Positions 36,211-60,189 of a stretch of 64,000 bases of DNA are shown here, piece by piece; position 1 is the stretch's first letter; each line of letters starts with the position of its first letter. Origin of the DNA: Gammaproteobacteria bacterium. GTDB taxonomy: Bacteria; Pseudomonadota; Gammaproteobacteria; SURF-13. A program made the position numbers and the translations under genes. The stretch covers positions 2,922 through 66,921 of the forward strand of contig QZKM01000006.1 in assembly GCA_003599485.1 (NCBI GenBank), read 5' to 3'. A model generated the notes under the pieces. It saw only the letters and a program-made list of their open reading frames with translations. It had not been told where the DNA came from and ran no database searches.

Positions 36211-36291
36211 GAGGCGGCGTTGGGCGAATGGTGAGGCTGACTGCGTAGTGTCACTTTAACACATTGTCAAATGCCGGGGTATCCTAACAGG

Positions 36292-36440
36292 TTGTTGAAA
36301 AAGCCCTTCCATGGGCTTTTTCAACTCGCAAAGCGAAAAGTGTCATTTTCGCTTTGCTACATTTTTCAAGCACATAAAGCGTGCTTGAAAAATGGCGGTG
36401 CGTCCCTGCACCGCACGCAGGCTGTTTCTCAACAGCCTGC
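36292..36440. repeat. ~150-bp multi-hairpin repeat element, copy B (inverted relative to copy A)
   Basis: Reverse-complement homologue of 20269-20417 at ~85-90% identity, filling the ispA-dxs intergenic region. Its last hairpin overlaps the ispA stop codon. Confidence 0.55.
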
Positions 36441-37327
36441 TAGCTTGTCCTGGCCACGATATAGTGCGCGAGCTGGCGCAATGCCTCGGCGCGGCCGTCC
36501 AGGCCGGCCAGACTGTCCAGGGCCGCGTCACGCAGGTCATTGGCGATTTGCCTGGCCTGGCTGAGGCCGAGCAGGGCGGGATAGGTGGGCTTGTTGCGCG
36601 CACGGTCCGCGCCTTGGGTTTTACCCAGGGTTTGCGTGTCGCCGGTTTCATCCAGGATGTCATCCTGAATCTGAAACGCCAGCCCGATGCGTTTGGCGTA
36701 GCGGTCAAGCTGGCTTAATACAGCTTGATCCAGGTTCGGGCCGCAGTAAGCGCCGAGCAGTACGCTGGCGCGGATCAGCGCGCCGGTTTTCTGTACATGC
36801 ATCAGTTCCAGTTCGGCCAGGCTTAAGGTTTTGCCGGCCGCCGCGAGGTCCAGCGCCTGGCCGCCCGCCATGCCGTGTGAACCGCTCGCCTGCGCCAGTG
36901 TTTCAATCATCTTGACGCGCATCGAGTCAGTGACCGGCGGTGCAGCGCGGGCAAGCAACTGAAACGCGAGCGCGATCAGCGCATCGCCCGCCAGAATGGC
37001 GGTGGCCTCGCCGAACGCCTTGTGACAGGTTGGTTTGCCGCGGCGCAGGTCATCGTCGTCCATCGCGGGCAGGTCGTCATGCACCAGCGAATAGGCGTGA
37101 ATCATCTCCACCGCGCAGGCGGGCGCATCGAGTAGCGCCGGCTCCGCGCCCGTGACGCATCCGGCGGCGTACACCAGGGCGGGGCGGATGCGCTTGCCGC
37201 CGTCCAGCACCGCGTAACGCATCGCGCGATGCAACTCCGCGGGGGCGGAGCCGGCCGGCGGCAGGCAGGCGTTCAACGCGCGCTCAACGCGCGCCTGATA
37301 CTCGTTGAGCAGCGCTTCGGCTGACAT
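36440..37327 (-). CDS. ispA: (2E,6E)-farnesyl diphosphate synthase
   Basis: First DDxxD motif (LVHDDLPAMDDDDLRRGK) and second DD motif (FQIQDDILD). Start taken at MSAEALL. Confidence 0.9.
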   Translation of the reverse strand: MSAEALLNEYQARVERALNACLPPAGSAPAELHRAMRYAVLDGGKRIRPALVYAAGCVTGAEPALLDAPACAVEMIHAYSLVHDDLPAMDDDDLRRGKPTCHKAFGEATAILAGDALIALAFQLLARAAPPVTDSMRVKMIETLAQASGSHGMAGGQALDLAAAGKTLSLAELELMHVQKTGALIRASVLLGAYCGPNLDQAVLSQLDRYAKRIGLAFQIQDDILDETGDTQTLGKTQGADRARNKPTYPALLGLSQARQIANDLRDAALDSLAGLDGRAEALRQLAHYIVARTS

Positions 37328-38772: not shown

Positions 38773-38926
38773 AAACGCCGCGCTTGACGCCAGTCCGGGG
38801 GGACGGAATGATGAACGGCTATGGGCAGGACGGCCGGCGTTTGGCGAGGCAGCGGGGCGATGCAAGGCGCGGTTTGCGTCAACTTTAAAGTTCATTACCT
38901 GGCGTTTGACAACTGAGGGGGGCGTT

Positions 38927-40138
38927 ATGAACCTGGTCTATAAACACGAAAAACCGCTGTTCTATATTCTGGTGGTTATCTCACTGTTGATTTGGATTGG
39001 TGTAATTGCCGTTACCTCCGGCATCGCGCTGATTTACGTGGCAGTGGCTTTTATCTTTTATCTGTTTTTCCAGTCGGCCTTTATTTCTTATTTGAAGGGT
39101 ACGGCGGTCAAAATCACCGTGCAACAGTTTCCCGATCTCCATGAGCGCGTTACAGCGTGCTGCGCCAGGCTTGGTATCAGTAAAATTCCCGATGCCTATT
39201 TGCTGCGTTCCGACGGAGCATTCAATGCCTTCGCCACGCGCTTCCTGGGGCGTAATTTCATCGCCCTGTATTCCGAGCTCGCCGACGCGCTGGAGGCGCA
39301 ACCGGGCGCCCTCGACTTTTATATTGGCCATGAGTTGGGCCACATTCATCGCGGCCATCTCAAGTGGCATGTATTCACCTGGCCCGCGAGCATTCTGCCG
39401 TTGCTCGGCGCGGGCTATTCCAGGGCGTGTGAATATACCTGTGATCGCTATGGCCTTGCCTGTGTCACCGATCCGAACGATGCAAAAGCGGGGATGGCGG
39501 CGCTGGCGGCGGGCGCCAAACGCTGGCGCACGCTCAGTCATCAGCACTATGCCGCCCAGGACACGCGTGGTTTCTGGATGTCCTTTCATGAGTTGACCGG
39601 CGACTATCCCTGGCTCACCAAGCGTATGGCCACGCTGGATGCCTTGATCGCCAGGCAGCCCGTGCGCCTGCCGCGGCGCAACATTTTCGCCTGGCTGCTC
39701 GCGCTGTTTGTCCCGCGCCTGGGGCTGGGTAAAGGGGCGGCGGGCGGGATGATTGTCCTGCTGGTCATCGTCGGCGTACTCGCCGCGATTTCCTTTCCGG
39801 CGTATCAAGAGTTTCAGATGCGTGCCAACGTGGCGGGCGTCTTTGCCGAAATCGGCCATGTGAAGACCGCCATTGACACCTACCGTTTGGATAATAACGC
39901 CCTGCCCAACAGCAATGAGGAACTCAACCTGCCGGTAACGGGCGACTATGGTAAAAATATCCAATCCATTGCAGTGAGCGAGGGCGGGATCATCACCGTC
40001 ACGTTGACGGGGGCGCTGGAGGATAAGTCAGTGGTGCTGGGCTATATTGAAGGGAGCGAAGGGGAGGTATGGGCGTGTGAAAGCGATACCCTCGACAAAA
40101 AATATCTGGAGCGATATTGCCAGGTGGTAGGCCAATAG
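38927..40138 (+). CDS. M48-family zinc metallopeptidase fused to a C-terminal leaderless type IV pilin-like domain
   Basis: HExxH motif HELGHIHRGH within a membrane-embedded M48 core. The last ~140 aa resemble a mature type IVa pilin: hydrophobic alpha1 (MIVLLVIVGVLAAISFPAYQEFQMRANVAGVFAEIG) and a C-terminal Cys pair (WACESD...YC). It lacks the G|FTLIE prepilin cleavage motif. An RBS (gaggggg) precedes the ATG. Confidence 0.6.
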   Translation: MNLVYKHEKPLFYILVVISLLIWIGVIAVTSGIALIYVAVAFIFYLFFQSAFISYLKGTAVKITVQQFPDLHERVTACCARLGISKIPDAYLLRSDGAFNAFATRFLGRNFIALYSELADALEAQPGALDFYIGHELGHIHRGHLKWHVFTWPASILPLLGAGYSRACEYTCDRYGLACVTDPNDAKAGMAALAAGAKRWRTLSHQHYAAQDTRGFWMSFHELTGDYPWLTKRMATLDALIARQPVRLPRRNIFAWLLALFVPRLGLGKGAAGGMIVLLVIVGVLAAISFPAYQEFQMRANVAGVFAEIGHVKTAIDTYRLDNNALPNSNEELNLPVTGDYGKNIQSIAVSEGGIITVTLTGALEDKSVVLGYIEGSEGEVWACESDTLDKKYLERYCQVVGQ

Positions 40139-41121: not shown

Positions 41122-41277
41122 CAGTTCGTTGAAAAACGAACTGCTAGGCGCCACAAGGATGTGTCGCATCGAAAATCGAACACGCCAGTGTTTGATTTTC
41201 GATGCGAGCCGCGGGCGTGTACCGCGGCGAGCGAGTTGAAAAACGCCAGGGACGGCGTTTTTCAACAAACTGCTAGT
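41118..41277. repeat. 160-bp multi-hairpin element bounded by 9-bp inverted repeats CTAGCAGTT / AACTGCTAG
   Basis: Contains four stem-loops (gcagttcg-ttgaaaaa-cgaactgc, gcatcgaaaatcgaa..ttgattttcgatgc, ccgcgg..ccgcgg, ttgaaaaacgcc..ggcgtttttcaa). The first hairpin shares the GCAG-N4-GTTGARAAAC-N4-CTGC design of the A/B repeats. It begins at the TPR gene stop codon. Confidence 0.4.
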
Positions 41278-41441
41278 CCCGCCGCCGGCTATTTCTAAAG
41301 TGTGAACGGCGCCAGGCCCCGTACCGCGGCCTGTCCGCACGCTTCTTCATGCGTCAATTTTGCCCGCTTTAACAGGCGTTTTTCATCCAGAGGCCGCATT
41401 TTTACTGTATAATGGGCGGTTTGGTTTCCCGGATGTTTCCC

Positions 41442-43262
41442 ATGCTGGATAAATTACGCAATATCGCCATCATCGCCCACGTGGATCACGGCAAGACCAC
41501 GCTGGTGGACAAGCTGTTGCAGCAATCGGGCGCCTTTGGCGAACGCGCGGCGCTGACCGAACGGGTGATGGACTCCAACGATCTGGAGCGCGAGCGCGGC
41601 ATCACCATCCTGGCCAAGAACACCGCGCTGCGCTGGAACGATTACCGCATCAACATCGTGGACACCCCCGGCCACGCCGACTTCGGCGGCGAGGTGGAGC
41701 GCGTGCTCTCGATGGTGGATTCGGTGCTGCTGCTGGTGGATGCGGTGGACGGCCCCATGCCGCAGACCCGTTTCGTGACGCAGAAGGCGTTTGCGCTGGG
41801 TTTGAAGCCCATCGTGGTCATCAACAAGGTGGATCGCCCCGGCGCGCGCCCGCACTGGGTGCTGGACCAGACCTTCGATTTGTTCGACAATCTCGGCGCC
41901 ACCGATGAGCAACTGGACTTTCCGGTGGTATACGCCTCGGCGCTGCACGGCTATGCCGGTCTGGATGAAACGGTGCGCTCGGGCGACATGACGCCGCTGT
42001 TCGAGACCATCGTCAAGCACGTCAAGCCGCCGCAGGTGGACCCGGCGGGGCCGTTCCAGATGCAGGTGAGCTCGCTGTCTTATTCCAGCTACGTCGGCGT
42101 GATTGGCATCGGGCGCATCACGCGCGGGCGCATCAAGACCAATACGCCGGTGGTGGTGGTGAACCGCCAGGGCGAAAAGCGCAACGCGCGCGTGCTGCAA
42201 CTGTTCAACATGCTCGGCCTGGAGCGCATCGAAATTCCCGAAGCCGAGGCGGGCGACATCATCGCCTTCACCGGCATCGAAGGGCTGGGGATTTCCGACA
42301 CGCTGTGCGACCCCACCGCCGTCGAGGCCCTGCCCGCGCTGGTGGTGGACGAGCCGACGGTGAGCATGACGTTTCAGGTCAACACCTCGCCGCTCGCGGG
42401 CAAGGATGGCAAGTACATTACCAGCCGCCAGATCCGCGAGCGCCTGCAACGCGAACTGATACACAATGTCGCGCTGCGCGTGGACGAAACCGACGACCCG
42501 GACAAGTTCCGCGTCTCCGGGCGCGGTGAACTGCACCTCTCCATCCTGATTGAAAACATGCGCCGCGAAGGCTATGAGCTGGCCGTGGGCCGCCCGCAGG
42601 TGATTTTGAAACAAGTGAACGGCGTGTTATGCGAGCCGTATGAAAACCTGGTGGTGGACGTCGAGGAGCAGCATCAAGGCGCGGTGATGGAGCGCCTGGG
42701 CGCGCGCAAGGGCGACCTTGCCAATATGCAGTCCGACGGCAAGGGGCGGGTGCGTCTCGACTACATGATTCCCACGCGCGGGCTGATCGGCTTTCGCAAC
42801 GAATTCCTGACCCTTACCTCCGGCACCGGCCTGCTGCACAGCGTTTACCATCACCACGGCGAGCAGAAAAAGGGCGGCATCGGCCAGCGCGTGAACGGCG
42901 CCCTGATCAGCAACGGCGCGGGCAAGAGCGTGGCCTACGCGCTGTTCAGCCTGCAGGAGCGCGGCCGGTTGTTTATCGGCCCGGGCGAGGAGTTGTACGA
43001 AGGCATGGTGATCGGCATCCACTCGCGCGATAACGATCTGGTGGTGAACCCGCTGCGTGGCAAGCAGCTTACCAACATCCGTTCCGCCGGGGCGGACGAA
43101 AATATCATCCTGACGCCGCCAATACGCATGACGCTGGAACAGGCGCTGGAATTCATAGACGACGATGAACTGGTTGAAGTCACCCCGCACTACACCCGCA
43201 TCCGCAAGCGGTTGTTGCTGGAACACGAGCGCAAAAGAGCTTCGCGCGCGGCGGCGGGCTAA
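41442..43262 (+). CDS. typA: translational GTPase TypA/BipA
   Basis: G1 [10 protein letters not shown]3 DTPGH and EF-G-like domains. A TATAAT at ~41408 precedes it. Confidence 0.95.
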
Positions 43263-43277
43263 GGTTTTCCTTGAGCC

Positions 43278-43985
43278 TCAGCCCGTGCGCGATTGCGCCG
43301 CGGGCGCGAAGAAGCGGTAGCCTGAGCCGCGCACGGTTTCTATCAAGTGATCGTGGCCGTATTTTTTCAGCGCCAGGCGCAGACGCCGGATGTGAACGTC
43401 CACGGTGCGCTCGCCGATGTAGACGTTCCTGCCCCACACCAGATCGAGCAACTGACTGCGGCTGTACACGCGCCCGGCATGGGTCATGAAAAAGTGCAGC
43501 AGGCGGAATTCCGTGGGGCCCATCTCCACCGCGTGCCCGCGTGAACTGACGCGGTGGCTGACGGGATCAAGATGCAGGTGGGCGATTTCAATGGCGTCGT
43601 CGGTGGCCTGCGGCGCGGTGCGGCGCAATACCGCGCGGATGCGCGCCATCAGTTCGTTGGGCGAAAACGGCTTGGTGATGTAATCGTCGGCGCCGGTTTC
43701 CAGGCCCTTGATCTTGTCGGCCTCTTCGCCGCGCGCGGTGAGCATGATGATCGGTATCCCGCGCGTCGCCTCTTCACGCTTCAGGCGCCGCGCAAAATCT
43801 ATGCCGCTCAGCCCCGGCAGCATCCAGTCCAACAGTATCAGCACCGGAGGTTCGGCGATGATTTTCGCCTGCGCCTGTTCGGCATTGTGCGTCTCGCTGT
43901 AGTCGTAGCCCGCGCGCGCAAGCGCGAAACCGATCATCTCACAGATGGCCGGCTCGTCATCTACGATCAGTATCGTGTTGGCCAT
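43278..43985 (-). CDS. phoB: phosphate regulon response regulator PhoB (OmpR family)
   Basis: Receiver domain (ILIVDDE...D at [10 protein letters not shown]) plus a PhoB-like winged helix. A canonical Pho box lies upstream. No phoR is adjacent. Confidence 0.75.
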
Positions 43986-44040
43986 GGCTGGCTTGTTGGT
44001 CTTTAATATTCATGTTGAATGACTATTAAAGTGTAAAATT

Positions 44041-44058
44041 ATTACAGTTATATTACAG
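44041..44058 (-). promoter_or_regulatory. Pho box (CTGTAAT-ATAA-CTGTAAT) upstream of phoB
   Basis: On the minus strand it reads CTGTAATATAACTGTAAT, a 7-4-7 direct repeat matching the PhoB-binding consensus CTGTCAT-N4-CTGTCAT. It sits ~56 bp upstream of the phoB ATG. Confidence 0.5.
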
Positions 44059-44068
44059 GGCCGGGATT

Positions 44069-45913
44069 TTAGTTCAGGAGCGGCAATTGGTCGGCGGAAT
44101 GGTCCGCCGTACGGCGGTCTATGAACAGGCTGTTGCCGCTCATGCTCTTGGCCTGGTGCTTGATCTCACCGGCGCGCACGGAAATCTCATGATGGGTCGA
44201 GAAGCGCCCTGACGGCGCCTCCACGGCGGCGATGGAGAGGCTCATGACCGGATAAAACAATTCATGGCCGCGCCGGTCCTTGGCCCACATGCCCCCCGCC
44301 GCGCGATGTCCGGCGTCATAGAGATGCAGGATTTCGCGCTCGAAACGTTGCAGGATGGAGCGGCAACGCTGTTGCCAGTCCTGGCTCAAAAACACCACGA
44401 TAAAGTCATCGCCGCCGATATGCCCCACAAAGTCATGCCTGTCATGCGCATGCTCGGCCAGAATGCCGGCCAGCAGTTTAATCGCTTCGTCGCCGCGGGC
44501 GTAGCCGTAGACGTCATTGAACGGCTTGAAATTGTCCAGGTCGCAGTAACACATGACAAAGGCCCAGCGTTTCTGCAGCAGGTCGTCCAGACATTCGTTG
44601 ATGGGCACGCTGCCGGGCAACAGGGTGAGCGGATTGGCGTAACGGGCGTTGCGCACCTGCAGGTCGGTGATCTTGCGCAGCAGGTCGGTGAGCGTGCCTA
44701 CCCCGGCATAGTGGCCGCGCGCGGTGATGATGAATTCATCGCTCATCTGCAACCCCGATTCGCTGGTAACGAGCTTGCTCAGTTTTTCCAGAGGCAGGTT
44801 CTGGTCCACGATCAGGGGTTTTTTGTCCATGAAGCGCGCGACGGGTTTTTTGCTGTGCAACTCGCGCCCGTAACGGCTGGCGAACACGTTCATGAACTGG
44901 TTGCGCCGCACCAGGCCGACCGGCACGTTGTCCTCGCGCACCACGGGCAGGGAGCTTAAGTGCGGCGCGCCGCAAAACAACTCGCCTACTTCGTGGAATG
45001 TCAGGCTTGGGCGTATGGACGCGCGTTCCATGATGAGCGCCGCCGTGGTGCTGAAACGCTGTGAACTGCGCAGATGAAACTGCGAGCTGCGCATGCGCCC
45101 GGCCATCATCACGGCCTGCGGCAGCATCCGGAGCGCGATGGCGTGAGGACGGGAAAAATAGTAACCCTGCCCCATCGGGATACCGAGATCCCGAATCGCC
45201 AGATACTCCTCTTTTGTTTCTATGCCCTCCGCGATCACTTTGCAATTCAGCGTCAGCGCGATTTCATGGATGGATTGCACGAACTTGCGCTTGACCACGT
45301 CTTCGTGGATACCCTGCACGAAGTGCATGTCTATTTTCACGTAGTCGGGACGCAGTTCCGACCACAGGCGCAACCCGGAATAACCCGCGCCCAGGTCGTC
45401 AATGGCCACCTCCAGCCCCATGGTTTTATAGTGCAGCGCCGCATTGTGCAATACCGTGTGGTCGTGTATCGGAGTATGTTCGGTGATCTCCATGACCACT
45501 TGCTCCGGGTCCATGCCCAAGGCCGCCATGTGCTGCAGGGTGAGCCCCGGTTTGAAGTCCGGCTGCAAAAGGCAGGCGGGGTTGATATTAAGAAACAGCT
45601 TGCCGGTCAGGCGTTGCTCTTTATAAGACTGCAGGGCCGCCTGCCGGCACAGCAGATCGAGTTCCAGCAGCCGTCCGGCGCGCAGCGCGGTGTCGAATAA
45701 ATTATCCGGCGTATGCAGTACGCTGTCCGAGGGGCCGCGGATCAGCGCCTCATAGCCGTAAATCGTGTTGTCCGAAAGCAACACGACGGGCTGAAATAAA
45801 GGGGTAAGCAACCGCTGTTCCATGATGTCATGGAGGGTCCTGGCCTGTGTCCAGTGTGCTTCCGCCTGATCGGCGGAAGGAGGGGCGTGCTGCTCAGCAC
45901 GGTAAGTAACCAT
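44069..45913 (-). CDS. c-di-GMP phosphodiesterase: EAL domain - CBS pair - degenerate GGDEF (GGDDF)
   Basis: The N-terminal EAL domain has all catalytic motifs (EALIR, EITE, DDLGAGYS, KIDMHF, AEGIET, QGYYFSRP). The central region is CBS-like. The C-terminal GGDEF fold has HIGGDDF in place of GG(D/E)EF. Confidence 0.75.
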   Translation of the reverse strand: MVTYRAEQHAPPSADQAEAHWTQARTLHDIMEQRLLTPLFQPVVLLSDNTIYGYEALIRGPSDSVLHTPDNLFDTALRAGRLLELDLLCRQAALQSYKEQRLTGKLFLNINPACLLQPDFKPGLTLQHMAALGMDPEQVVMEITEHTPIHDHTVLHNAALHYKTMGLEVAIDDLGAGYSGLRLWSELRPDYVKIDMHFVQGIHEDVVKRKFVQSIHEIALTLNCKVIAEGIETKEEYLAIRDLGIPMGQGYYFSRPHAIALRMLPQAVMMAGRMRSSQFHLRSSQRFSTTAALIMERASIRPSLTFHEVGELFCGAPHLSSLPVVREDNVPVGLVRRNQFMNVFASRYGRELHSKKPVARFMDKKPLIVDQNLPLEKLSKLVTSESGLQMSDEFIITARGHYAGVGTLTDLLRKITDLQVRNARYANPLTLLPGSVPINECLDDLLQKRWAFVMCYCDLDNFKPFNDVYGYARGDEAIKLLAGILAEHAHDRHDFVGHIGGDDFIVVFLSQDWQQRCRSILQRFEREILHLYDAGHRAAGGMWAKDRRGHELFYPVMSLSIAAVEAPSGRFSTHHEISVRAGEIKHQAKSMSGNSLFIDRRTADHSADQLPLLN

Positions 45914-45986
45914 GTATGCGCCTTATCATAGGTGAAGTTCAGCGTTGAAACAATTCCAGCCGCCGGGCCAAAGCCCGGCGCCGGAA

Positions 45987-46301
45987 TTACACCGTGCCGG
46001 CGCCATGAAGCCGGGTTATAGTGTCCATGTCTTCTATATAGACGCGCGGGATGCGCTGCACGGCCCCGTCGCCTGTATCCAGCATCGGGTCCGTGAACGC
46101 CAGTAGATGGCCCTGCCAGCAGGCATCGTTCAAGCGCTCGTCCAAGGGCGCCATCTCCACATACACGCCACTTTCGCCACCCGGCCTCAGGATTTTTGTC
46201 ACCTTGAGTTCAATGCCCTGCTCGTTGATATAAATATCGCCCAGCTTGATAATGTTGCCGTTGGGCGTGGACAGTTCCAGAAACAAACGGTCTTTGCTCA
46301 T
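45987..46301 (-). CDS. hypothetical ~104-aa protein upstream of the EAL gene
   Basis: An RBS (ggagagg) precedes MSKDRLFLELS. No recognised domain. Co-oriented with the EAL-CBS-GGDEF gene. Confidence 0.35.
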   Translation of the reverse strand: MSKDRLFLELSTPNGNIIKLGDIYINEQGIELKVTKILRPGGESGVYVEMAPLDERLNDACWQGHLLAFTDPMLDTGDGAVQRIPRVYIEDMDTITRLHGAGTV

Positions 46302-46433
46302 TAACGCCTCTCCATAAATAGCAGCGCGCATCATGCGGCAGATGCGTGACAGGATAATGACACCGGGGGCGAAAGCGCGGCTCGTCCCGGGCTTTCATGC
46401 CGCGAACTGCCGGGAGGCGCAAATTTATTTATC

Positions 46434-46462
46434 CTGTAACAACTTGTTCATTTTTCTGTAAC
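46434..46462 (+). promoter_or_regulatory. Pho-box-like triple 7-mer array (CTGTAAC-N4-TGTTCAT-N4-CTGTAAC) upstream of porin gene
   Basis: Three CTGTNAY-like heptamers at 11-bp periodicity, ~118 bp upstream of the porin ATG and ~2.4 kb from phoB. Confidence 0.4.
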
Positions 46463-46579
46463 ATGACACCGGCAAGCTACGCCCACGGTTTTGAGATTGC
46501 TGGCCGGTTGACGGTTTGGCACAGCGGATTACTTCAGGATTAATCAACAAATTCATAATGTTACTTTAAAAAGGAGAGT

Positions 46580-47644
46580 ATGGCCATGAAGCAGCACCCA
46601 CATAAAAAACTCTACGCGGCGCTTGTCACGGCGCTGTGCGCAGCGTCCTTTGCGGCACAGGCGGACGAAACCTACAAGATTTACGGCAAGGCGCGCGCCT
46701 CCGTGGATTTCACGGACGACGGCTCAGATAACGTCACCAACGTCTCCAGCAACAGCTCGCGTTTGGGCTTCAAGGGCAGCGAGGACCTGGGCAATGGGTT
46801 GAGGGCCCTCTTTCAATTCGAGACGCTGGTCAGTCTCGATGGCGAGGAAAGCACGCTGTTCGCCTCGGCCCGCAACAGCTACGTGGGCCTTGCGGGCGGC
46901 TTCGGCACCCTGGTCTTGGGCGTCACGGACAATCCCTACAAGCTCGCCACCGGCAAGCTCGACAACTGGGGCGACAGCATGGGTGATTTCAACGCCATCA
47001 TTGGCAGTATCAGCACAACGAAAACGCCGTTCAACGAACGCGACCCCAACAGCATCAACTACTGGAGTCCGAAGATGAGCGGCTTCCAACTGTTAGCCGC
47101 CTTCCGTCCTGATGAAACCGGCGGCGTGAAACGGGACAGATACAGCGTGAACGCTACCTATGAAAACGGTCCCTATTACGCCAGTGTTGCCTACGAAAAG
47201 CATGATAATGATACCACGGACGGTGCGGGTGGTAATGACACCGACGGCCTGACAGTCGGCTTGAGCTACCTCTTCAACCAGGACAAAACCAAGCTGGGCT
47301 TGGTATATGAGTCGCTGTCGGAGGATAAGATAGCAAGCGCGTTCGACCGCGACGCATGGTATCTGGCCTTGTCGCACAAGATGGGCAGCAACACCCTCAA
47401 GATTGCCTACGCCCAGGCCGATGACAATGACTCGGCAAGTAACACCGGCGCGGATTGGTTTGTGGCCGGTCTTGCGCACAAGATGGGCAAACGCACCGAA
47501 CTCTATGCCCTGTACGCCAACACCAACAACGACAGCGGTGCGAAGTATGGCTTGGGCACGGGCGGCTCCAGCGGTGCGGCCACAAATGCTACTGCCGGGA
47601 AAGACCTGTCCACCTTCTCCATCGGCATCAACCACAACTTCTGA
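46580..47644 (+). CDS. outer-membrane general/phosphate-starvation porin (Gram-negative porin family)
   Basis: Signal peptide (ALCAASFAAQA), amphipathic beta-strand periodicity and a C-terminal aromatic residue (...INHNF). The upstream Pho-box-like repeats suggest Pho-regulon membership. Confidence 0.7.
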   Translation: MAMKQHPHKKLYAALVTALCAASFAAQADETYKIYGKARASVDFTDDGSDNVTNVSSNSSRLGFKGSEDLGNGLRALFQFETLVSLDGEESTLFASARNSYVGLAGGFGTLVLGVTDNPYKLATGKLDNWGDSMGDFNAIIGSISTTKTPFNERDPNSINYWSPKMSGFQLLAAFRPDETGGVKRDRYSVNATYENGPYYASVAYEKHDNDTTDGAGGNDTDGLTVGLSYLFNQDKTKLGLVYESLSEDKIASAFDRDAWYLALSHKMGSNTLKIAYAQADDNDSASNTGADWFVAGLAHKMGKRTELYALYANTNNDSGAKYGLGTGGSSGAATNATAGKDLSTFSIGINHNF

Positions 47645-47664: not shown

Positions 47665-47703
47665 CAGCCGTTTGACGGCCACCCGCGGGTGGCCGTTTTT
47701 TTT
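47665..47703. terminator. bidirectional rho-independent terminator between convergent porin and sixA genes
   Basis: Hairpin ggccacccgcgggtggcc with a T-run (gttttttt) on one side and an A-rich stretch on the other. Confidence 0.6.
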
Positions 47704-47713
47704 AGGGGGTTAT

Positions 47714-48208
47714 TCAGACCAAACGCAGCAGGTCCTGCGGGCGGTAAAAGTACAGCAGCGTGCCTGCGCCGCGCGCCGCGCGGCGGTTGAACGCTATGCC
47801 CATGACGGCGCTTTTGCCGAACTTTATTGGGAAGTCCGCGCCCAGCAGCGCCTGGGCCAGCTCACTCAGGTCCGGCTCATGGCCGACGCACAGCACGGTC
47901 TCATCAGGTTTACAGCGTGTGAGCAGGGTAAGCGCGGTTTTGAGCGAATAGCGGCCGCCGAGCGCTTCGTCTTCGCTCACCGTGTTCGCCAGCCCCAAAA
48001 TCCTGGCCGTGATCCCGGCCGTGTGGCGCGCGCGCAGGCGCGGGCTGGTGAGAATGCGATCAGGCTTGATCCTCATGCGCTTGAGCGCCTTGGCCATGGC
48101 GCGCTGGGTTTTTTTGCCGGTTGAGTTGAGCGGGCGCAGATCGTCGTCAGGATAACGGCGCAGGCTGGCTTTTCCGGCCTCGGCGTGACGCATTAAAATG
48201 AGCAGCAT
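47714..48208 (-). CDS. sixA: phosphohistidine phosphatase SixA
   Basis: Histidine phosphatase RHAEA motif (LILMRHAEAG). Confidence 0.8.
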   Translation of the reverse strand: MLLILMRHAEAGKASLRRYPDDDLRPLNSTGKKTQRAMAKALKRMRIKPDRILTSPRLRARHTAGITARILGLANTVSEDEALGGRYSLKTALTLLTRCKPDETVLCVGHEPDLSELAQALLGADFPIKFGKSAVMGIAFNRRAARGAGTLLYFYRPQDLLRLV

Positions 48209-48210
48209 GG

Positions 48211-49029
48211 TTATACGGCGCCGTCCGTGTCTTTCTTGAAACTGTATTGCCCGATCTTGCCGCGCAGCGGCAGCAGTAACAGGTCAAGCAAGCCCAGCCG
48301 CGCGCGGTATTCCTTCAAGCCGATTTCAAAGCCCACTTGTCCCAGTGCCGGCTGCGCGCGGTAAGTGCCGCACAGCCGGTCCCACAGCGAAATGGAAAAT
48401 CCGAAGTTGGAGTTGGTTTCGTTGACCACGCTGGAGTGATGCACGCGGTGCATATCCGGCGTGACGATGACGAGGCGCAGCCAGCGGTCTATTTTTTCCG
48501 GGATGTGCACGTTGCCGTGATTGAACACCGAGGCGCCGTTCAGTATCAGCTCGAACGCCAGCACCGCCCAGGGCGGCGCGCCCAGGGCGGCGACGGCGGC
48601 CATTTTGTACAGCATGGAGATGACGATTTCAACCGGATGAAAGCGCACGCCGGTGGTGAGATCGAAGTCCAGATCGCTGTGGTGCACGCGGTGAAGACGC
48701 CAGAACACGGGTAGCGCGTGCGAGATTACATGCTGCAGATACAGTGCAAAATCAAGCAGCAGCCAGGCGAGCAGGAATTCCGTCCACATGGGCCAGGCGG
48801 TGAGATTGAACAGCCCCCAGCCGTGCTGCTGCGCATACAGCGCCGTGGCGTAGGCCCCGGCGCCCAGCAGCAGGCGCACCAGCAGCGCGTCCACGGCGAG
48901 CAGCGAGAGGTTGGTGCGCCAGTGCCGGCTGCGCGGCCCGGTGGGCGCACGGCGCGGACGCTGCGTTTCCCACAGCGCCATCACGATCGACAGGACGATA
49001 AAGCTGCCAAGGCGGATCAGGGTTTCCAT
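48211..49029 (-). CDS. fatty acid hydroxylase/sterol desaturase superfamily membrane protein
   Basis: His boxes HRVHHSD and HRVHHS with multiple TM segments. Confidence 0.75.
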   Translation of the reverse strand: METLIRLGSFIVLSIVMALWETQRPRRAPTGPRSRHWRTNLSLLAVDALLVRLLLGAGAYATALYAQQHGWGLFNLTAWPMWTEFLLAWLLLDFALYLQHVISHALPVFWRLHRVHHSDLDFDLTTGVRFHPVEIVISMLYKMAAVAALGAPPWAVLAFELILNGASVFNHGNVHIPEKIDRWLRLVIVTPDMHRVHHSSVVNETNSNFGFSISLWDRLCGTYRAQPALGQVGFEIGLKEYRARLGLLDLLLLPLRGKIGQYSFKKDTDGAV

Positions 49030-51326: not shown

Positions 51327-52316
51327 ATGGCCGGCGCCATGAAAAATGTACTGTTAAAATTGTTCCATAAACCTGCGCACAGCGAAGGGGTGGCCGGTAT
51401 CGCCCTTGCACCCGGCGGCGTCAGCCTGGCGCGCATTGTGCGAACCGAAGGCGGGCGGCCGCGTGTCACGCTGTGCGTGCATCACGCGCTGCCGGACGAG
51501 CGCGGTGAGTCATTCGCCGCGCTGGTCAGGCAGCATGGGCTGGCCGATGCCCGATGTGTTGAGTTGCTGGAAGTGAACAGCTACCAGTTGCTGCTGGTGG
51601 AAGCGCCCAACGTTACCCCCGCGGAGCTCAAGGCTGCGGTGCGCTGGCGCATCAAGGACCTCATCAACTTTCATATTGACGACGCGGTGATTGATGTATT
51701 CGACATTCCCGCGCAGAATCTTTCCGGTCAGAGCAGGATGATGTATGTGGTGGTGACGCGCGCCGCCCTGGTGCAGGAGCATATCGCGCTGGTCAAAAAC
51801 GCCGGCCTGGATTTGGCGGTGATAGATATTCCGGAGATGGCGCTGCGCAACATCACCGCGCTGTTTCCCGAAGACAGCGCGGGCGTGGTGCTGGTGCATC
51901 TGACGCCGCAGGGCGGGCATATCATCCTGACGCGCGCGGGCACGCTGTATCTGGCGCGCAAAATCGAGCTCAATTTCGCCCGGCTGTTCAGCGGGCTGGA
52001 GGCGGCGCGCCCGGACGAGGCGCTGCCCGACGACGTGCAACGCCTGCTGGACAACATCGTGCTGGAAGTGCAGCGCTCCCTGGATTACTGCGAGAGCCAC
52101 TATTCTCAGCCGTCCATTACCCACCTGCTGTTTGCCCCCCTGGAGCGGGAGCTGCCCGGCGCGGTGAACCACGTCGCCAACAGCCTGGGTTTAAAAGTCA
52201 GACAGATAGACTTGAACGAGGTGCTGCAGTGTGAGGCGCCGCTCAGCCGGACACTGCAAGCGCAGTGCCTGCTCGCCGTGGGCGCGGCGCTGCGCGATGC
52301 CGCCTCGCTGCAATGA
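51327..52316 (+). CDS. mshI: MSHA biogenesis protein MshI, N-terminal PilM-like (actin-like ATPase fold) part
   Basis: First gene of an MSHA-type cluster (I-J-K-L-M-N-E-G-F...pilins). PilM-like fold. Start possibly at MKNVL (51339). Confidence 0.6.
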   Translation: MAGAMKNVLLKLFHKPAHSEGVAGIALAPGGVSLARIVRTEGGRPRVTLCVHHALPDERGESFAALVRQHGLADARCVELLEVNSYQLLLVEAPNVTPAELKAAVRWRIKDLINFHIDDAVIDVFDIPAQNLSGQSRMMYVVVTRAALVQEHIALVKNAGLDLAVIDIPEMALRNITALFPEDSAGVVLVHLTPQGGHIILTRAGTLYLARKIELNFARLFSGLEAARPDEALPDDVQRLLDNIVLEVQRSLDYCESHYSQPSITHLLFAPLERELPGAVNHVANSLGLKVRQIDLNEVLQCEAPLSRTLQAQCLLAVGAALRDAASLQ

Positions 52317-52323
52317 GACCGGC

Positions 52324-52962
52324 ATGATAGGCCAGCAGATCAATCTGTATCTCCCCATCTTCCGCGGCGAGCGGCAACCGTTTTCCGCGCAGACCCTGTT
52401 GTATGCCCTGGCGGGCGTAGCGGTCGTGCTGATGCTTTACTACGGTTATGCCTTGTGGAGTCTGGGGCCGGTGAAGAAAGAGCTGGCGAGCGCGCAGCAG
52501 CGGCACGGCATGGCGCTTAAACGCCTGGAGGAACTGGGTCAGCAGGCGCAGGCCAATCAGAAAGACGCGGCTCTTGAACAGGAGGTAGCGCGGCTCGATG
52601 CCGAGCGCGGCGCGAAACAGCAGGCGCTCGCCAATATTACCGGCGGCGGTTTGGGCAACACCAGGGGATTTTCGGCCCAGATTGAAGGGTTGGCGCGGCA
52701 GCGCGTGGAAGGAGTGTGGCTGACCAATATCGTCATCAGCCAGGGCGGCGCCGACTTTGCGCTGAACGGCGGCGCCCTGGCTCCTGAACTGGTGCCGGTG
52801 CTGTTGCAGGCGCTTGGAAAAGAACCGGTGTTCAAAGGCATGGAGTTCAAGACCCTGTTGCTGGAGCGCTCCGAACAGCAGCCGGCCTGGATTAATTTCA
52901 CCTTGCGCACCGGCAACACGGCGTCCGCCGGGCAAGCTGCGCTCACCGCAGGCGCCGGATGA
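52324..52962 (+). CDS. MshI C-terminal / PilN-like bitopic assembly protein
   Basis: MIGQQINLYLPIF resembles the PilN INLLP motif, followed by a single TM helix and a periplasmic coiled coil. It is a separate ORF in another frame, 7 nt after the upstream stop. Confidence 0.5.
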   Translation: MIGQQINLYLPIFRGERQPFSAQTLLYALAGVAVVLMLYYGYALWSLGPVKKELASAQQRHGMALKRLEELGQQAQANQKDAALEQEVARLDAERGAKQQALANITGGGLGNTRGFSAQIEGLARQRVEGVWLTNIVISQGGADFALNGGALAPELVPVLLQALGKEPVFKGMEFKTLLLERSEQQPAWINFTLRTGNTASAGQAALTAGAG

Positions 52963-53606
52963 AGGAGAAGCTGCGGCAACTGCTGGCGCGCGTAGATGCG
53001 TTCGCGTTGCGCGAGCGCATCCTGCTGTTCGTGACGCTGGGGGTTGTCCTGGTTATTGTCTGGAACGGTGTTCTGCTCGGCCCGGTCAACGTGGAAAAGA
53101 AACGCATCACGGCCGAGCTTTCCGGCTTGAAGCAACAAATCGTCACCGCCGAACAGCAAATACAGGACGCCACCGCCGGAATTGTGGTGGACGTAAACAA
53201 GGAAAACCGCGAACGCGCGGCCACGCTCAGGCAGGAGTTGGCCGATCTCGACCGGCGCATCGGTCAGCTCGCGTTGGGGGGTGAGGAGCTGACCAAGGTG
53301 CTGGCGGAGATGCTGACCAAAGAGCCGGAACTCAAGCTGATTCGGATCAGAAACCTGGAGCGCGTGCCGCTGGAGGTTTCCATCGCGCCGCAGGCGGGTG
53401 GCGCGGGCAGGCTGTACAGGCACGGGCTGGTGATAGAGATGGAGGGCGGCTATTTCAGCGCGCTGCGCTACCTGAAGGCCCTGGAGGGGTTGCCCTGGCA
53501 GTTGTCGTGGAGCAGTTTCAATTACAAGGTGAACGCGTACCCGCTCGCGCATATCACCCTTACCCTCTACACCCTGGGGCTGACGGAGGGCGCGGTGGGT
53601 GTGTGA
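52959..53606 (+). CDS. mshJ: MSHA biogenesis protein MshJ (PilO-like)
   Basis: N-terminal TM helix and coiled coil at the PilO position. Overlaps the upstream gene by 4 nt. Confidence 0.55.
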   Translation: MKEKLRQLLARVDAFALRERILLFVTLGVVLVIVWNGVLLGPVNVEKKRITAELSGLKQQIVTAEQQIQDATAGIVVDVNKENRERAATLRQELADLDRRIGQLALGGEELTKVLAEMLTKEPELKLIRIRNLERVPLEVSIAPQAGGAGRLYRHGLVIEMEGGYFSALRYLKALEGLPWQLSWSSFNYKVNAYPLAHITLTLYTLGLTEGAVGV

Positions 53607-54024
53607 AATACAGAGAAAAGGGGAAAGGGCAAAGGGCAAAGGGAACAGAATTAGGATTTTTCCCTTTGTCCTTTCCCCTTTTCTCTTTGCCCTGTTCTCG
53701 GTTCAAGCCGGATTGCCACAGGTGGAAGGAGAGCTTTCCGATCCCACCAGGCCCCCGGACTATCGGGCGGCCGCCGCCGGGATCGCCGATGCCGTGGCCG
53801 CGCCGCAGTGGGTGCTGAAATCCATACTGATTTCACCCGGCCGGCGCAGCGCTGTTTTGAATGGACGCGCAATCAAAAAGGGCGAACAATTGGACAACCA
53901 GGTGACGGTGCTGGACATCCTGCCCGGCTCGGTATTATTGAAAGGCGCGGAGGGCGAATTTTCTGTGAATTTATTACCCACAACGGTCAAGATGCCGGTC
54001 AATTCCGGGAGCCCGGTCCAATGA
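53599..54024 (+). CDS. mshK: MSHA biogenesis protein MshK (PilP-like lipoprotein/periplasmic)
   Basis: The GTG start overlaps the mshJ end. Lys/Arg-rich n-region then hydrophobic FVLSPFLFALFSVQAG. Overlaps mshL as caATGa. The start assignment is uncertain (ATT/CTG alternatives). Confidence 0.45.
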   Translation: MCEIQRKGERAKGKGNRIRIFPFVLSPFLFALFSVQAGLPQVEGELSDPTRPPDYRAAAAGIADAVAAPQWVLKSILISPGRRSAVLNGRAIKKGEQLDNQVTVLDILPGSVLLKGAEGEFSVNLLPTTVKMPVNSGSPVQ

Positions 54025-55745
54025 CGGACGTTACCATCTCGCGGGTGTGGCGGAGATTGGCGCCGGCGCTGATAATGGCCATCGCGCTGGCGGGCTGCAC
54101 CGCGCCGCCGCAAAATGACAGCGCCGCGCGAAACATTGAAAAAACCCTGGAACACGCCGCGCGCGAGTCCGAGGCGCAGGCGCGCGCCAAGGATCAACCG
54201 CCACGCGAGGTGCTGGACGCCCTGTTGCCGCCGCTCGACGCCGGCAGCCTGCGCGGCCCGGCGGCCGAACCGGTGTTCGATATCGCGGTGAACAATCTCA
54301 ACGCCCAGGAATTTTTCCTCAGCCTGGTGGAAGGGACTCCCTATAATGTCGTGGTGCATCCCGAGGTGACCGGCGCAATCTCGCTCAACCTGAAGGGAAT
54401 GACCATCCCGCGCGTCATGGAGAGCGTGCGCGACGTGTACGGCTATGACTTCCAGCGCACTGGCGCCACCTTCCGCATATTGCCCGCCACGCTACAGACG
54501 CGCCTGTTCAAGGTGGATTATCTGCGCGTGAACCGCACCGGCCAGTCCCAGACGCGCATCAGCTCCGGACAGCTTTCGCAGCAGGTGGGCAGCACCAGCG
54601 GCACGACCACCGGCACGACCACCGGCACAACAGGCAGCGCCACGGGCGTCACCTCGAATGAGGTGAAGACCGAGTCCAAATCAGACTTCTGGACTGAACT
54701 GGAGGCCTCGCTTACGGCGTTGGTGGGTTCGGGGGAGGGCAGAAGCGTGGTGGTGAGCCAGCAGTCGGGCGTGGTGGTGGTGCGCGCCCTGCCCAGCGAA
54801 CTGCGCAATGTGGAACTGTTTCTTAACTCCACGCAAACCTCCATCGAACGCCAGGTGATACTGGAGGCCAAGATTCTGGAAGTGGAATTGAGCGATGGTT
54901 TCCAGTCCGGCATCAACTGGACCGCGTTGGTCGAGCCCGGCAACAATAAAAGCATCACCGTTGGCCAGACAGGCGTCAGAACCAGCGCCACCGGAGCGGT
55001 AAGCGGCGTTCTGGCCGCCACCGGCGTTGCCGCCGGGGGGGCGTTCTCGGCCGCCAACGGAGTATTCTCGCTGGCCTTGGCGCTCAATGACTTCAATGTC
55101 TTTATTGATTTGCTGAAGCAACAGGGCAATGTGCACGTGTTGTCCAGTCCGCGCGTCTCCACGGTCAATAATCAGAAGGCGCTCATCAAGGTGGGCTCGG
55201 ATGAGTTTTTCGTCACCAGCGCCACGGCCACCACCACCACCACCACCGGCACGACGACGACCACGCCCAGCGTCACACTCACGCCCTTCTTTTCCGGCAT
55301 CGCACTGGAAGTGATTCCGCAGATCAACGAGGCCGGCGAGGTTATTTTGTACATCCATCCGTCCGTAAGCGAGGTGCGGGATCAACAAAAGTCCATTACT
55401 TTCGGCGGCGTCACTCAAACCCTGCCGCTCGCCTTGAGCAATGTGCGCGAATCCGACAGCATTGTGCGCGCCGCCAACAATCAAGTGGTGGTGATCGGCG
55501 GCCTGATGCAGGATAGCTCGCGCAACGACAGGGCCAGTGTGCCGGGCGCGGACGGGCCGGTGCTGGGCAAGCTGCTGGGCCACAAACGCGGCTCCTCGCG
55601 CAAGAGCGAGCTGGTGATTCTGCTGCGCCCCACCGTGGTCGAGAGTGATTACCAATGGGCGGAGTCGCTGCGCACTACCGCCGACTCCTTCAAGAGCATC
55701 AAGCGGGCCGCCCCGGAAAGCGCCCGCGCTGATGAAATCCGCTGA
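54021..55745 (+). CDS. mshL: MSHA secretin MshL (GspD/PilQ secretin family lipoprotein)
   Basis: Lipobox LAGC. C-terminal secretin domain (VVVIGGLMQD...ELVILLRPTVV). Thr/Gly-rich linkers (TSGTTTGTTTGTTGSATG; TATTTTTTGTTTTTPS). Confidence 0.8.
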   Translation: MTDVTISRVWRRLAPALIMAIALAGCTAPPQNDSAARNIEKTLEHAARESEAQARAKDQPPREVLDALLPPLDAGSLRGPAAEPVFDIAVNNLNAQEFFLSLVEGTPYNVVVHPEVTGAISLNLKGMTIPRVMESVRDVYGYDFQRTGATFRILPATLQTRLFKVDYLRVNRTGQSQTRISSGQLSQQVGSTSGTTTGTTTGTTGSATGVTSNEVKTESKSDFWTELEASLTALVGSGEGRSVVVSQQSGVVVVRALPSELRNVELFLNSTQTSIERQVILEAKILEVELSDGFQSGINWTALVEPGNNKSITVGQTGVRTSATGAVSGVLAATGVAAGGAFSAANGVFSLALALNDFNVFIDLLKQQGNVHVLSSPRVSTVNNQKALIKVGSDEFFVTSATATTTTTTGTTTTTPSVTLTPFFSGIALEVIPQINEAGEVILYIHPSVSEVRDQQKSITFGGVTQTLPLALSNVRESDSIVRAANNQVVVIGGLMQDSSRNDRASVPGADGPVLGKLLGHKRGSSRKSELVILLRPTVVESDYQWAESLRTTADSFKSIKRAAPESARADEIR

Positions 55746-55768
55746 GAACAGAATGAGAGGACACCGTC

Positions 55769-56698
55769 ATGTACCTTGAACACTTCGGTTTGCGTGAGAC
55801 GCCCTTCACCCTCACGCCGGATACCAGTTTTTTCTACGCCTATGATTCGCACGTGGCCACGCTCAACACCCTGCTGGTGGCGCTGCGCAGCGGAGACGGG
55901 TTTATCATGGTGACGGGCGAGGTGGGCACCGGCAAGACCTTGCTGTGCCGCAAGCTGCTTTCTTCACTGCGCAACGAGGAATTCGTCACCGCCTATATCT
56001 ACAACCCTTATCTGGAGCCGATGACCTTGCTGTACGCCGTGGCGGACGAATTGCGCGTCCAATACAAGGATAAGCTGAATCAACACCAGTTGTTGAAAGT
56101 TATCACCAAGGCGCTGATTGATTTCTACGCCGCGGGCAAGCGCGTGGCGCTGTGTCTGGACGAGGTGCAGGCGATGCCGGTGGAAACGCTGGAAACGCTG
56201 CGCCTGCTCACCAACCTGGAAACGGAAAAGCGCAAATTGCTGCAAGTGGTGTTGTTTGGCCAGCCTGAATTGCACCAGGTGCTGGACCAGCCGTCGGTCA
56301 GGCAGCTCAAACAACGCATCGTGTTTTCCCACAGCCTGTTGCCTCTGGACAGGGACGGCACGGAAGGCTACGTGATGCACCGCTTGACCGTCGCGGGCTA
56401 TAACGGCAAGCGGCTGTTTACCGGCGATGCGCTGCGCGATTTATATCGGGCGAGCGGCGGCATCCCGCGCCTGGTGAATGTCATCTGCCATAAGGCGCTG
56501 ATGGCCGCCTACGGCCAGGGTAAGCGCAGCGTCGAGCGTCGGCACATGCGCCTGGCGGTGCAGGACACGCTCGGCGGCGACGTGGTCCCGCCCGCCGCCT
56601 CGCACCGCTGGGCCTATTCGCTGCTCGGCGCCGGAGGTCTGCTGCTGCTCGCCGCCGGCGGTTACTATTACTACGGAGCCAACTTGTTCCCGGCATGA
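55769..56698 (+). CDS. mshM: MSHA biogenesis protein MshM (ExeA-like AAA ATPase)
   Basis: Walker A GEVGTGKT and Walker B LCLDEVQ; ExeA/MshM family. Confidence 0.8.
   Translation: MYLEHFGLRETPFTLTPDTSFFYAYDSHVATLNTLLVALRSGDGFIMVTGEVGTGKTLLCRKLLSSLRNEEFVTAYIYNPYLEPMTLLYAVADELRVQYKDKLNQHQLLKVITKALIDFYAAGKRVALCLDEVQAMPVETLETLRLLTNLETEKRKLLQVVLFGQPELHQVLDQPSVRQLKQRIVFSHSLLPLDRDGTEGYVMHRLTVAGYNGKRLFTGDALRDLYRASGGIPRLVNVICHKALMAAYGQGKRSVERRHMRLAVQDTLGGDVVPPAASHRWAYSLLGAGGLLLLAAGGYYYYGANLFPA

Positions 56699-57902: not shown

Positions 57903-57906
<4 letters not shown>
56695..57906 (+). CDS. mshN: MSHA biogenesis protein MshN (TPR repeats, Pro/Ala-rich linker)
   Basis: TM anchor, a ~130-aa Pro/Ala-rich low-complexity segment, then C-terminal TPR repeats. 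Confidence 0.6.
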
Positions 57907-59678
<1,772 letters not shown>

Positions 59679-59731
59679 TATCTCGTAACGTCTGAAATTT
59701 CCAGATCAGAAAAGATGATTATTCTTTCGCC

Positions 59732-59974
59732 GTGAAAGGATACAAGTTCACACCGTATTTCGAAAATGAGGTATTACGTAAACGTCCTTATCTGAGCAAA
59801 GAGTGGTGTATTCGAGTTCTTGAAAGCCCTATTAAGGTTGAAACTCAGGAGGGTAACCGCTTCCGTTTTTGGGGCACAATTGCCGAACTAAATGGTAAGA
59901 TATTACGAGTCATTACCCTGGAAGATAAGGTTACCATCCATAACGCCTTTCCGGACAGAGGGTTTAAACCATGA
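59732..59974 (+). CDS. DUF4258-family toxin-like protein
   Basis: 80 aa within a sharply AT-rich segment (~59690-60200). Paired with a DUF2283 gene by a 4-nt overlap. Confidence 0.6.
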   Translation: MKGYKFTPYFENEVLRKRPYLSKEWCIRVLESPIKVETQEGNRFRFWGTIAELNGKILRVITLEDKVTIHNAFPDRGFKP

Positions 59975-60189
59975 GACTTAAATACTATCCTGAAACTGAT
60001 TCGCTCTATATTGATCTTTCAGAAAAGCCCAGCACCGAGAGCAAGGAGATTTCTGAGGGGGTGGTGCTGGATTATGATGACAGCGGGAATCTGGTGGGTA
60101 TTGATATTGACAATGCCAGTAAAAAGATAGAACTCAAAGAATTGACATTAAGTCATCTCCCCTCCATTGTCCACACAGTCGCTGCTTGA
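59971..60189 (+). CDS. DUF2283-family antitoxin-like protein
   Basis: 72 aa. Y-x-PE-D-LYI-L...G-LVGIDI pattern typical of DUF2283. Start overlaps the DUF4258 stop (ATGA). Confidence 0.6.
   Translation: MRLKYYPETDSLYIDLSEKPSTESKEISEGVVLDYDDSGNLVGIDIDNASKKIELKELTLSHLPSIVHTVAA

Follow-up and report, generated by a model that had tools for sequence, protein, structure and literature searches.

An unlinked phoB gene in an uncultured gammaproteobacterium, set in a predicted Pho-regulon island with genes for a RapA-type phosphodiesterase and a porin

If the gene for the phosphate-regulon response regulator PhoB stands without the kinase gene phoR beside it, which genes does it control and where does its kinase come from? 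The question is raised by a 64-kb stretch of DNA from an uncultured gammaproteobacterium (hereafter the window, meaning the whole stretch; coordinates are positions in it). Here typA on the forward strand is followed by phoB, a gene for an EAL-CBS-GGDEF protein and a small open reading frame (ORF), all on the reverse strand, and then by a 278-bp divergent promoter region and a porin gene on the forward strand (41412–47644; Table 1). We consider it likely that these genes make up a compact Pho-regulon island in which PhoB acts on three promoters, the cognate kinase being encoded elsewhere. For comparison, 80 loci were taken from a PhoB scan of a genome collection and two more (L164 and L165; PhoB 75%, EAL protein 60–64% identity) were found via the EAL protein. 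The closest PhoB relatives, L001–L003, are metagenome-assembled genomes of uncultured Gammaproteobacteria (94–95% PhoB identity) with the same synteny and likewise without phoR at this locus; L081 and L082 belong to the window's own species. The layout, with the porin gene divergent from the (small ORF,) rapA-like gene and phoB, and phoB convergent with typA, is kept among relatives down to 75% PhoB identity and is intact in L164 and L165. Pho boxes were scored with a position weight matrix (PWM) made from seven E. coli Pho boxes and checked against nine boxes predicted upstream of phoB in relatives.

Judged by its sequence, the ORF at 43278–43985(−) is a true PhoB. It scores 351.3 bits against the TIGR02154 cutoff of 296.2, with the next families (MtrA, CreB and others) far under their own cutoffs, and it does not reach the narrower enterobacterial model NF007546 (313.6 vs 471). 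The phospho-acceptor pocket is complete, with the receiver residues D9/D10, D53, T83 and K105 all present. PhoB has the alpha-1 segment ‘EPAICEM’ in common with phoR-linked relatives, and compared with them its beta5-alpha5 region is likewise unchanged; it looks like an ordinary phosphorylation-dependent regulator. Its DNA-recognition helix is the same in all aligned relatives and presumably identical to that of E. coli PhoB, and this identity justifies the scoring of sites with an E. coli-type Pho-box model. Within residues 184–193, the sigma-70 contact loop, a Gly replaces an acidic residue in the window, L001 and L003. The residue is acidic elsewhere (VYVEDR in E. coli, VY[IV]E[ED]R in all other aligned relatives), which makes the Gly change clade-specific.

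In E. coli Pho promoters, the Pho box lies 10 bp upstream of the -10 element and replaces the -35 element. The box itself is defined by 7-bp CTGTCAT-like direct repeats around an A/T-rich 4-bp spacer (PMC4447250). The initial annotation had described a textbook 7-4-7 box about 56 bp upstream of phoB and had taken it to imply autoregulation. Such a box is indeed present and perfect: Pho box A, CTGTAATATAACTGTAAT, lies 55 nt before the phoB ATG and 10 nt before the -10-like TTTAAT. It is the sole zero-mismatch match to CTGTMAYN4CTGTMAY in the window and, with 24.6 bits, ranks first of about 128,000 positions, while shuffles of the upstream region never rose above 20.5 bits (0/5000 shuffles). Box and -10 hexamer are conserved upstream of phoB in L001, L003, L164 and L165, and analogous boxes stand ahead of phoB in phoBR-containing relatives, which agrees well with the predicted autoregulation. 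With at most one mismatch allowed, the same consensus has two matches in the window against 0.15 expected. The top three PWM matches all fall in two intergenic regions of a 2.4-kb cluster, each facing its downstream gene.

The gene upstream of phoB encodes a protein with the domain order EAL, CBS and GGDEF (Pfam). Five homologues carry the catalytic motifs established for EAL enzymes without variation (EALxR, N109, ExxE (142–145), DD (172–173), K193, E229 and Q249); the GGDEF motif reads GGDDF. Over residues 23–598 the protein shares 44% identity with P. aeruginosa AAG06646.1/Q9HYY2 and 43% with a homologue from the P. fluorescens group. Going by the architecture described in PMC12900916, AAG06646.1/Q9HYY2 is probably locus PA3258. 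PA3258 is an EAL-CBS-GGDEF protein with RapA of P. fluorescens as its homologue; by RapA cyclic diguanylate (c-di-GMP) is depleted under phosphate starvation, and its gene has a Pho box upstream (PMC12900916; PMC3032545). On the strength of these alignments, the window gene is a member of the RapA/PA3258 family, a known kind of Pho-regulon member that is here joined to phoB. The initial annotation had called an orphan phoB next to a c-di-GMP phosphodiesterase gene unusual. As far as the phosphodiesterase is concerned this does not hold, since the P. fluorescens member of the family is an established Pho-regulon gene.

With over 7800 database proteins found at E <= 1e-50, the EAL-CBS-GGDEF family is large, and we compared the upstream regions of 75 of 80 homologue loci from a wide variety of metagenomes (L084–L163). 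One of these homologues falls in the 90% cluster of AAG06646.1/Q9HYY2 and another in the P. fluorescens-group cluster. The best Pho-box match on the gene strand had a median of 11.8 bits and reached at least 13 bits in 32% of cases, compared with 5.1 bits and 7% on the reverse strand of the same regions, 3.9 bits and 7% upstream of control ORFs from the same loci, and 3.7 bits and 0% in shuffles. This suggests that Pho control of the family extends well beyond Pseudomonas and is a family-wide trait. An example of such a Pho-box-like direct repeat is CTGTCATCAAATAGTCATGAAGCTGTCGT in L157. A general genomic linkage of the family with phoB was also considered and was rejected, as only 1/80 metagenomic homologues adjoins phoBR. 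Elsewhere in the window (51327–61496) lies a pilus cluster of the mannose-sensitive hemagglutinin (MSHA) type or type IV (PilM, PilN, secretin, T2SSF), with a T2SSE ATPase that carries an MshEN domain (57750–59678). Domains of this type bind c-di-GMP, and by analogy the ATPase could be a downstream target of a Pho-controlled phosphodiesterase.

Directly before the EAL start in the window there is no Pho box; a second box, overlooked in the initial annotation, lies upstream of the pair formed by the small ORF and the EAL gene. Pho box B (GTGTCATTATCCTGTCAC, 46346–46363(−)) has one mismatch and is, besides box A, the only window match with at most one. It scores 15.7 bits (PWM rank 2; local shuffle P = 0.008). 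The -10-like hexamer CATGAT follows after exactly 10 nt, the distance also seen between box A and its hexamer, and the small-ORF ATG follows 44 nt downstream of the box with a ribosome-binding site, GGAGAGG, in between. The small ORF is coding, with substitutions mostly at third codon positions and one in-frame indel. Its product is 87% identical in L001, 80% in L003, 41% in L164 and 42% in L004, and the ORF is always directly upstream of the EAL gene. It is lineage-restricted: just six database proteins were found, all at least 80% identical, and searches of Pfam and NCBIfam gave no match. An AlphaFold2 model from a 6-sequence alignment had a predicted local distance difference test (pLDDT) score of 45.

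Where box B came from can be read from the sister genomes. Alignment of the promoter region between the window, L001 and L003 shows just two conserved blocks in an indel-rich spacer, namely the porin array described below and the box B block, GTGTCAT-N4-YTGTCAC-N10-CAT(G/T)AT. The latter stands ahead of phoX in L001 and L003, whereas in the window it is the small ORF that follows it. In L003 and L083 a gene for a PhoX alkaline phosphatase with a twin-arginine translocation (TAT) signal separates the porin gene from the small ORF, and L001 encodes a divergent 499-aa PhoX-like protein at this position (PF05787 in L001 and L003). The sites are 5238–6737 in L001, 4965–7019 in L003 and 7938–9896 in L083, equivalent to about 46302–46345 in the window; phoX is absent from the locus in the window, L081 and L082. 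No Pho box is visible upstream of phoX in L083, and the porin gene of this locus, which is in flux, is truncated to 112 aa. The motif CATnATGCGCG is found at the phoX -10 region and again in the phoX terminator, and the window junction resembles a fusion of both. It is plausible that phoX was deleted through recombination between these short repeats. The locus thus reads as a clear example of promoter capture, in which the Pho-box promoter of phoX would now face a different gene after phoX was lost.

The third predicted promoter faces the porin gene. Its product matches PF13609 (Porin_4), with a partial Porin_1 match of 53.5 bits and no Pfam match to the OprP/OprO family; among solved structures, Neisseria PorB and Omp32 come closest to it. 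Going by these matches, it is not a member of the PhoE/OmpF/OmpC (Porin_1) or OprP/OprO families, and it may by analogy have a PhoE-like role. As the first ATG is missing from L001, translation probably begins at 46586. The initial annotation had noticed three CTGTNAY-like heptamers at 11-bp phasing; the array lies 118 nt before the ATG at 46580. The outer two, both CTGTAAC, match CTGTNAY exactly and are 22 bp, or two helical turns, apart, and this part of the description stands; the middle one, TGTTCAT, is weak and fits at positions 4–7 only (4/7 positions). For the overlapping 18-mers of the array the PWM gives 14.4 and 13.0 bits, ranks 3 and 6 in the window, and two boxes 11 bp apart, both of at least 13 bits, occurred with a frequency of 0.0002 in 5000 dinucleotide shuffles of the 278-bp intergenic region. 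The array thus does not score below background. L001 and L003 keep its outer heptamers within an otherwise variable spacer; in L164 and L165, 11-bp-phased but more degenerate heptamers can be seen by eye. Porin_4 homologues adjoin phoB(R) in many distant relatives, and ten of these phoB-linked genes have Pho boxes of 12–19.5 bits, 53–109 bp upstream, often ending CTGTAAC-AT. Together with the local statistics and the conservation, these favour the PhoB-controlled porin that had been proposed. Genes for a fatty-acid hydroxylase and a His_Phos_1 protein (47714–49029, −) always adjoin the porin gene in the clade (L081, L083, L164, L165). They have no convincing Pho box, the PWM matches at 48231 and 48626 lying inside coding sequence.

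Several points weigh against the proposed island. All scores depend on a PWM built on seven E. coli boxes instead of a curated table, and the porin and EAL genes of L014 are without detectable boxes. At the porin promoter, the middle heptamer is poor, there is no good -10 after the array, and no porin-side site reaches the 11-bit listing threshold in L164 and L165. Single porin 18-mers are also no better than the best chance match in shuffled 64 kb, where maxima average 14.8 bits. This last point and the poor middle heptamer leave room for another regulator of the OmpR family, for example an OmpR/EnvZ-type osmoregulator, as the protein that reads the porin repeats instead of PhoB. Porin genes are classic OmpR targets, and TGTAACA(T/A) resembles the OmpR half-sites GTTACAT and GAAACAT. 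We nevertheless regard this alternative as unlikely. The heptamer CTGTAAY is also found in the organism's own phoB box, and the 22 bp between perfect copies fits the 11-bp phasing of PhoB and not the 10-bp phasing of OmpR. The gene moreover lies in a Pho island, beside phoX in sister genomes, and the canonical Pho boxes of its ten phoB-linked homologues share the CTGTAAC-AT ending.

On the leftward side, there is no clear Pho box before the small ORF or the EAL gene in L164 and L165, and a conserved TATGAT just before the EAL start is a possible independent promoter, which makes co-transcription with the small ORF uncertain. Box B could accordingly be a mere leftover of the deleted phoX promoter, with the small ORF and the EAL gene transcribed from Pho-independent promoters of their own; the hairpin and T-run terminator that separates phoX from the small ORF in L001 and L083 would fit such a history. 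We give this explanation little credence. In the window no hairpin is left, and box, 10-nt spacer, -10, GGAGAGG and ATG all fall within 62 nt. L003 carries a separate box, CTGCAATAAATATTTCAC, followed after 10 nt by TATACT, before its small ORF, and L004 (PhoB 67%) has a four-heptamer array ahead of its small ORF and EAL pair, which is flanked by 5'-nucleotidase and GDPD/phytase-like genes. Both are independent arrays placed immediately before the small ORF, and enrichment of Pho boxes upstream is seen across the RapA family.

Promoter assignments aside, the island raises the question of its kinase. The gene after phoB is not phoR, as the initial annotation had correctly seen, but a convergent typA (TIGR01394) with 15 bp between the stop codons. 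No terminator-like structure lies in these 15 bp (43263–43277), and the transcripts probably overlap. A tblastn search of the window with six PhoR proteins from relatives gave nothing credible even at E <= 10. Pfam scans of essentially all window genes found no HisKA/HATPase_c, PstSCAB or PhoU, and neither regular-expression searches for H-box and G2-box motifs nor a lenient tblastn search for any kinase found one in the window. Thus pst, phoU and phoR are missing within 43 kb on one side of phoB and 20 kb on the other. Loci of 16–22 kb from L001, L003, L004, L164 and L165 have no kinase gene either (21.8 kb in L164 and L165). Because DNA resembling the window directly precedes phoB in L006 and L024, a pst-phoU operon had been suspected at 25–31 kb; this region is actually ubiB-ubiJ-ubiE, a DUF971-like ORF, hslU and lysA.

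In about 33/36 gamma- and betaproteobacterial loci (53–66% identity) phoR is directly downstream of phoB, whereas in SAR11 and other alphaproteobacterial loci it lies about 7 kb upstream of phoB or not within 10 kb. Adjacency of phoR is typical of the class and not a defining feature of the PhoB family. Because relatives share the layout, the unlinked phoB is real and old (family-level); by contrast with the 33/36 loci it is atypical for its class, and the alphaproteobacterial loci give it precedent in the Proteobacteria. The orphan state noted earlier is hence unusual for this class only, unlinked phoB and phoR being normal in Alphaproteobacteria. A hairpin-rich repeat of about 160 nt, resembling a repetitive extragenic palindrome or miniature inverted-repeat transposable element (REP/MITE-like), is dispersed in the clade. 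It occurs in the window (20259–20417, 36282–36445 and a fragment at 41231–41276), in L003 (3525–3703, 7014–7070, 10963–11028 and 14688–14959), in L164 (14503–14632 and 16734–16893) and in L004 (777–891). A 115-bp piece in L004 sits exactly between the phoB stop and a convergent EAL gene, where L014 has phoR, and in L003 another piece immediately follows the 3' end of phoB, at the place of the missing typA. The element may be a rearrangement hot spot linked to phoR loss.

The same absence could mean that phoR was lost altogether and that a non-cognate histidine kinase or acetyl phosphate acts on PhoB, in response to a signal other than, or besides, Pst/PhoU/PhoR. In its favour, the layout without phoR persists among relatives whose PhoB identity ranges from 75% to 99%, and in E. 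coli phoR mutants PhoB is cross-phosphorylated (CreC, acetyl phosphate). Absence from the window is, however, silent on the rest of the genome, and unlinked phoR is routine in Alphaproteobacteria. A distal PhoR is favoured over re-wiring to another kinase because the kinase-facing alpha-1 helix of PhoB, like its beta5-alpha5 region, is unchanged compared with phoR-linked relatives, and we hold the loss of phoR to be improbable. Least likely of all, and scarcely to be expected, is a family-level clade in which phoB is permanently split from any PhoR-type kinase and one Pho-box transcript with the phosphodiesterase and the 104-aa protein forms a phosphate/c-di-GMP feedback module, activated independently of Pst-PhoU-PhoR, for instance by another kinase or by input through the small protein or the nucleotide-binding CBS domains.

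The gene identities, site positions, statistics, conservation and synteny shown here can be combined into a model of the island with three PhoB-dependent promoters. Upon phosphate limitation, a PhoR-type kinase encoded elsewhere in the genome would most likely phosphorylate PhoB. Phosphorylated PhoB is expected to bind Pho box A and activate phoB in classic positive autoregulation. At Pho box B it would drive a leftward transcript for the 104-aa protein and the RapA-type phosphodiesterase, and since no strong terminator was found between small ORF, EAL gene and phoB, this transcript probably reads on into phoB. At the porin array, it would raise expression of the divergent Porin_4 gene, and the outer membrane would, as with PhoE, become more permeable to phosphate or to anions of other kinds, if the porin has the presumed selectivity. 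The predicted output is more PhoB, more porin and, provided that the phosphodiesterase is active, lower c-di-GMP, a shift away from attachment as with RapA in Pseudomonas fluorescens.

Table 1. Predicted genes and regulatory elements of the phoB locus
Feature	Coordinates	Strand	Basis
typA/bipA translational GTPase	41412..43262	+	TIGR01394 943.8 bits; convergent with phoB
phoB, phosphate-regulon response regulator	43278..43985	-	TIGR02154 351.3 bits; receiver residues, recognition helix
Predicted phoB -10 hexamer TTTAAT	44025..44030	-	Read from sequence, predicted; TTGAAT or TTTAAT in L001, L003
Pho box A CTGTAAT ATAA CTGTAAT, predicted phoB autoregulatory site	44041..44058	-	Consensus, PWM, conservation
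rapA-like EAL-CBS-GGDEF gene, predicted c-di-GMP phosphodiesterase, variant GGDDF	44069..45913	-	Pfam, homologue alignment
Lineage-restricted 104-aa ORF, first gene behind Pho box B	45987..46301	-	Codon-position substitutions, homologues
Predicted -10 hexamer CATGAT belonging to Pho box B	46330..46335	-	Invariant block GCGCGCATCATGC aligned with phoX promoters of L001, L003; predicted
Pho box B GTGTCAT TATC CTGTCAC plus weak third heptamer CTGCCGC	46335..46363	-	Consensus, PWM, conservation
Pho-box-like array CTGTAAC aact TGTTCAT tttt CTGTAAC, upstream of porin gene	46434..46462	+	PWM, tandem shuffle test, conservation
Porin_4 general porin, signal peptide, C-terminal Phe	46580..47644	+	PF13609 174 bits
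Intrinsic terminator after porin gene	47674..47697	+	10-bp stem, 7 GC pairs, then T run

The remaining window is ordinary chromosome (aspS, nadA, folA, pyrD, secB, gpmI, ubiEJB, hslU, lysA, dxs, ispA, thiG and the MSHA-type pilus cluster). An Rfam scan of the window gave tRNA-Gly as its sole match and no RNA element in the porin leader. In the ORF at 38906–40138, which is kept in L003 (11135–12415), a Peptidase_M48 match at the N-terminus is paired with a pilin domain at the C-terminus; either this fusion is an unusual one or the ORF caller wrongly joined two genes. A gene for a PAS-GGDEF diguanylate cyclase stands beside a Crp/Fnr-family regulator gene at 232–1970, and a cytochrome P460 gene is found at 10071–10550.

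For annotation, the value of the locus is that the “odd” neighbour of phoB can be named as a RapA-type phosphodiesterase, which would link a fall in c-di-GMP to phosphate starvation in an uncultured gammaproteobacterial lineage from sediment. The locus is also an instance of a stable layout of phoB without phoR, although phoBR is almost universal in the class. Every component is of a known kind, the only unusual feature being a PhoR that is apparently encoded elsewhere, and our understanding of the Pho regulon is not overturned.

Compared with the positively autoregulated phoBR promoter of E. coli (PMC3812086), the phoB promoter shares the 18-bp box of two heptamers around an A/T-rich 4-bp spacer; ahead of phoB in both, the box stands in for a -35 and is followed by the -10 after 10 bp. 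It differs in its heptamer (CTGTAAT, not CTGTCAT), in the convergent typA that lies 15 bp from phoB in place of phoR, and in that phoB may also receive read-through from an upstream Pho-box promoter. The alphaproteobacterial phoR-pstSCAB-phoU-phoB arrangement likewise has phoR in a place other than after phoB, with the kinase kilobases away or elsewhere (SAR11 loci). There phoB is still found with pst and phoU, whereas here, in a gammaproteobacterium, it has no pst, phoU or phoR nearby. With PhoE of E. coli and other PhoB-regulated porins such as KpnO of Klebsiella (PMC3405095), the locus shares a gene of a trimeric-porin family with Pho-box-like repeats in a Pho cluster; the porin here is Porin_4 (PorB/Omp32-like) and not Porin_1, and its array has three repeats with a weak centre.

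The link to phoX genes with Pho-box promoters is one of position: phoX occupies the place of the small ORF in L001, L003 and L083, with the homologous box in L001 and L003 only. Lastly, RapA of P. fluorescens Pf0-1 and PA3258 share with the window protein the domain order, a near-full-length identity of 43–44%, the GGDDF variant and the EAL motifs, and box B, ahead of the small ORF, would correspond to their upstream Pho box. LapD and LapG were not seen in the window. The window gene is distinguished by its physical place in the phoB locus, behind a lineage-specific 104-aa ORF, and by a Pho-box promoter that appears to be inherited from a lost phoX gene. By analogy, we expect it to have in common with RapA and PA3258 the role of lowering c-di-GMP under phosphate starvation (PMC3032545; PMC12900916).

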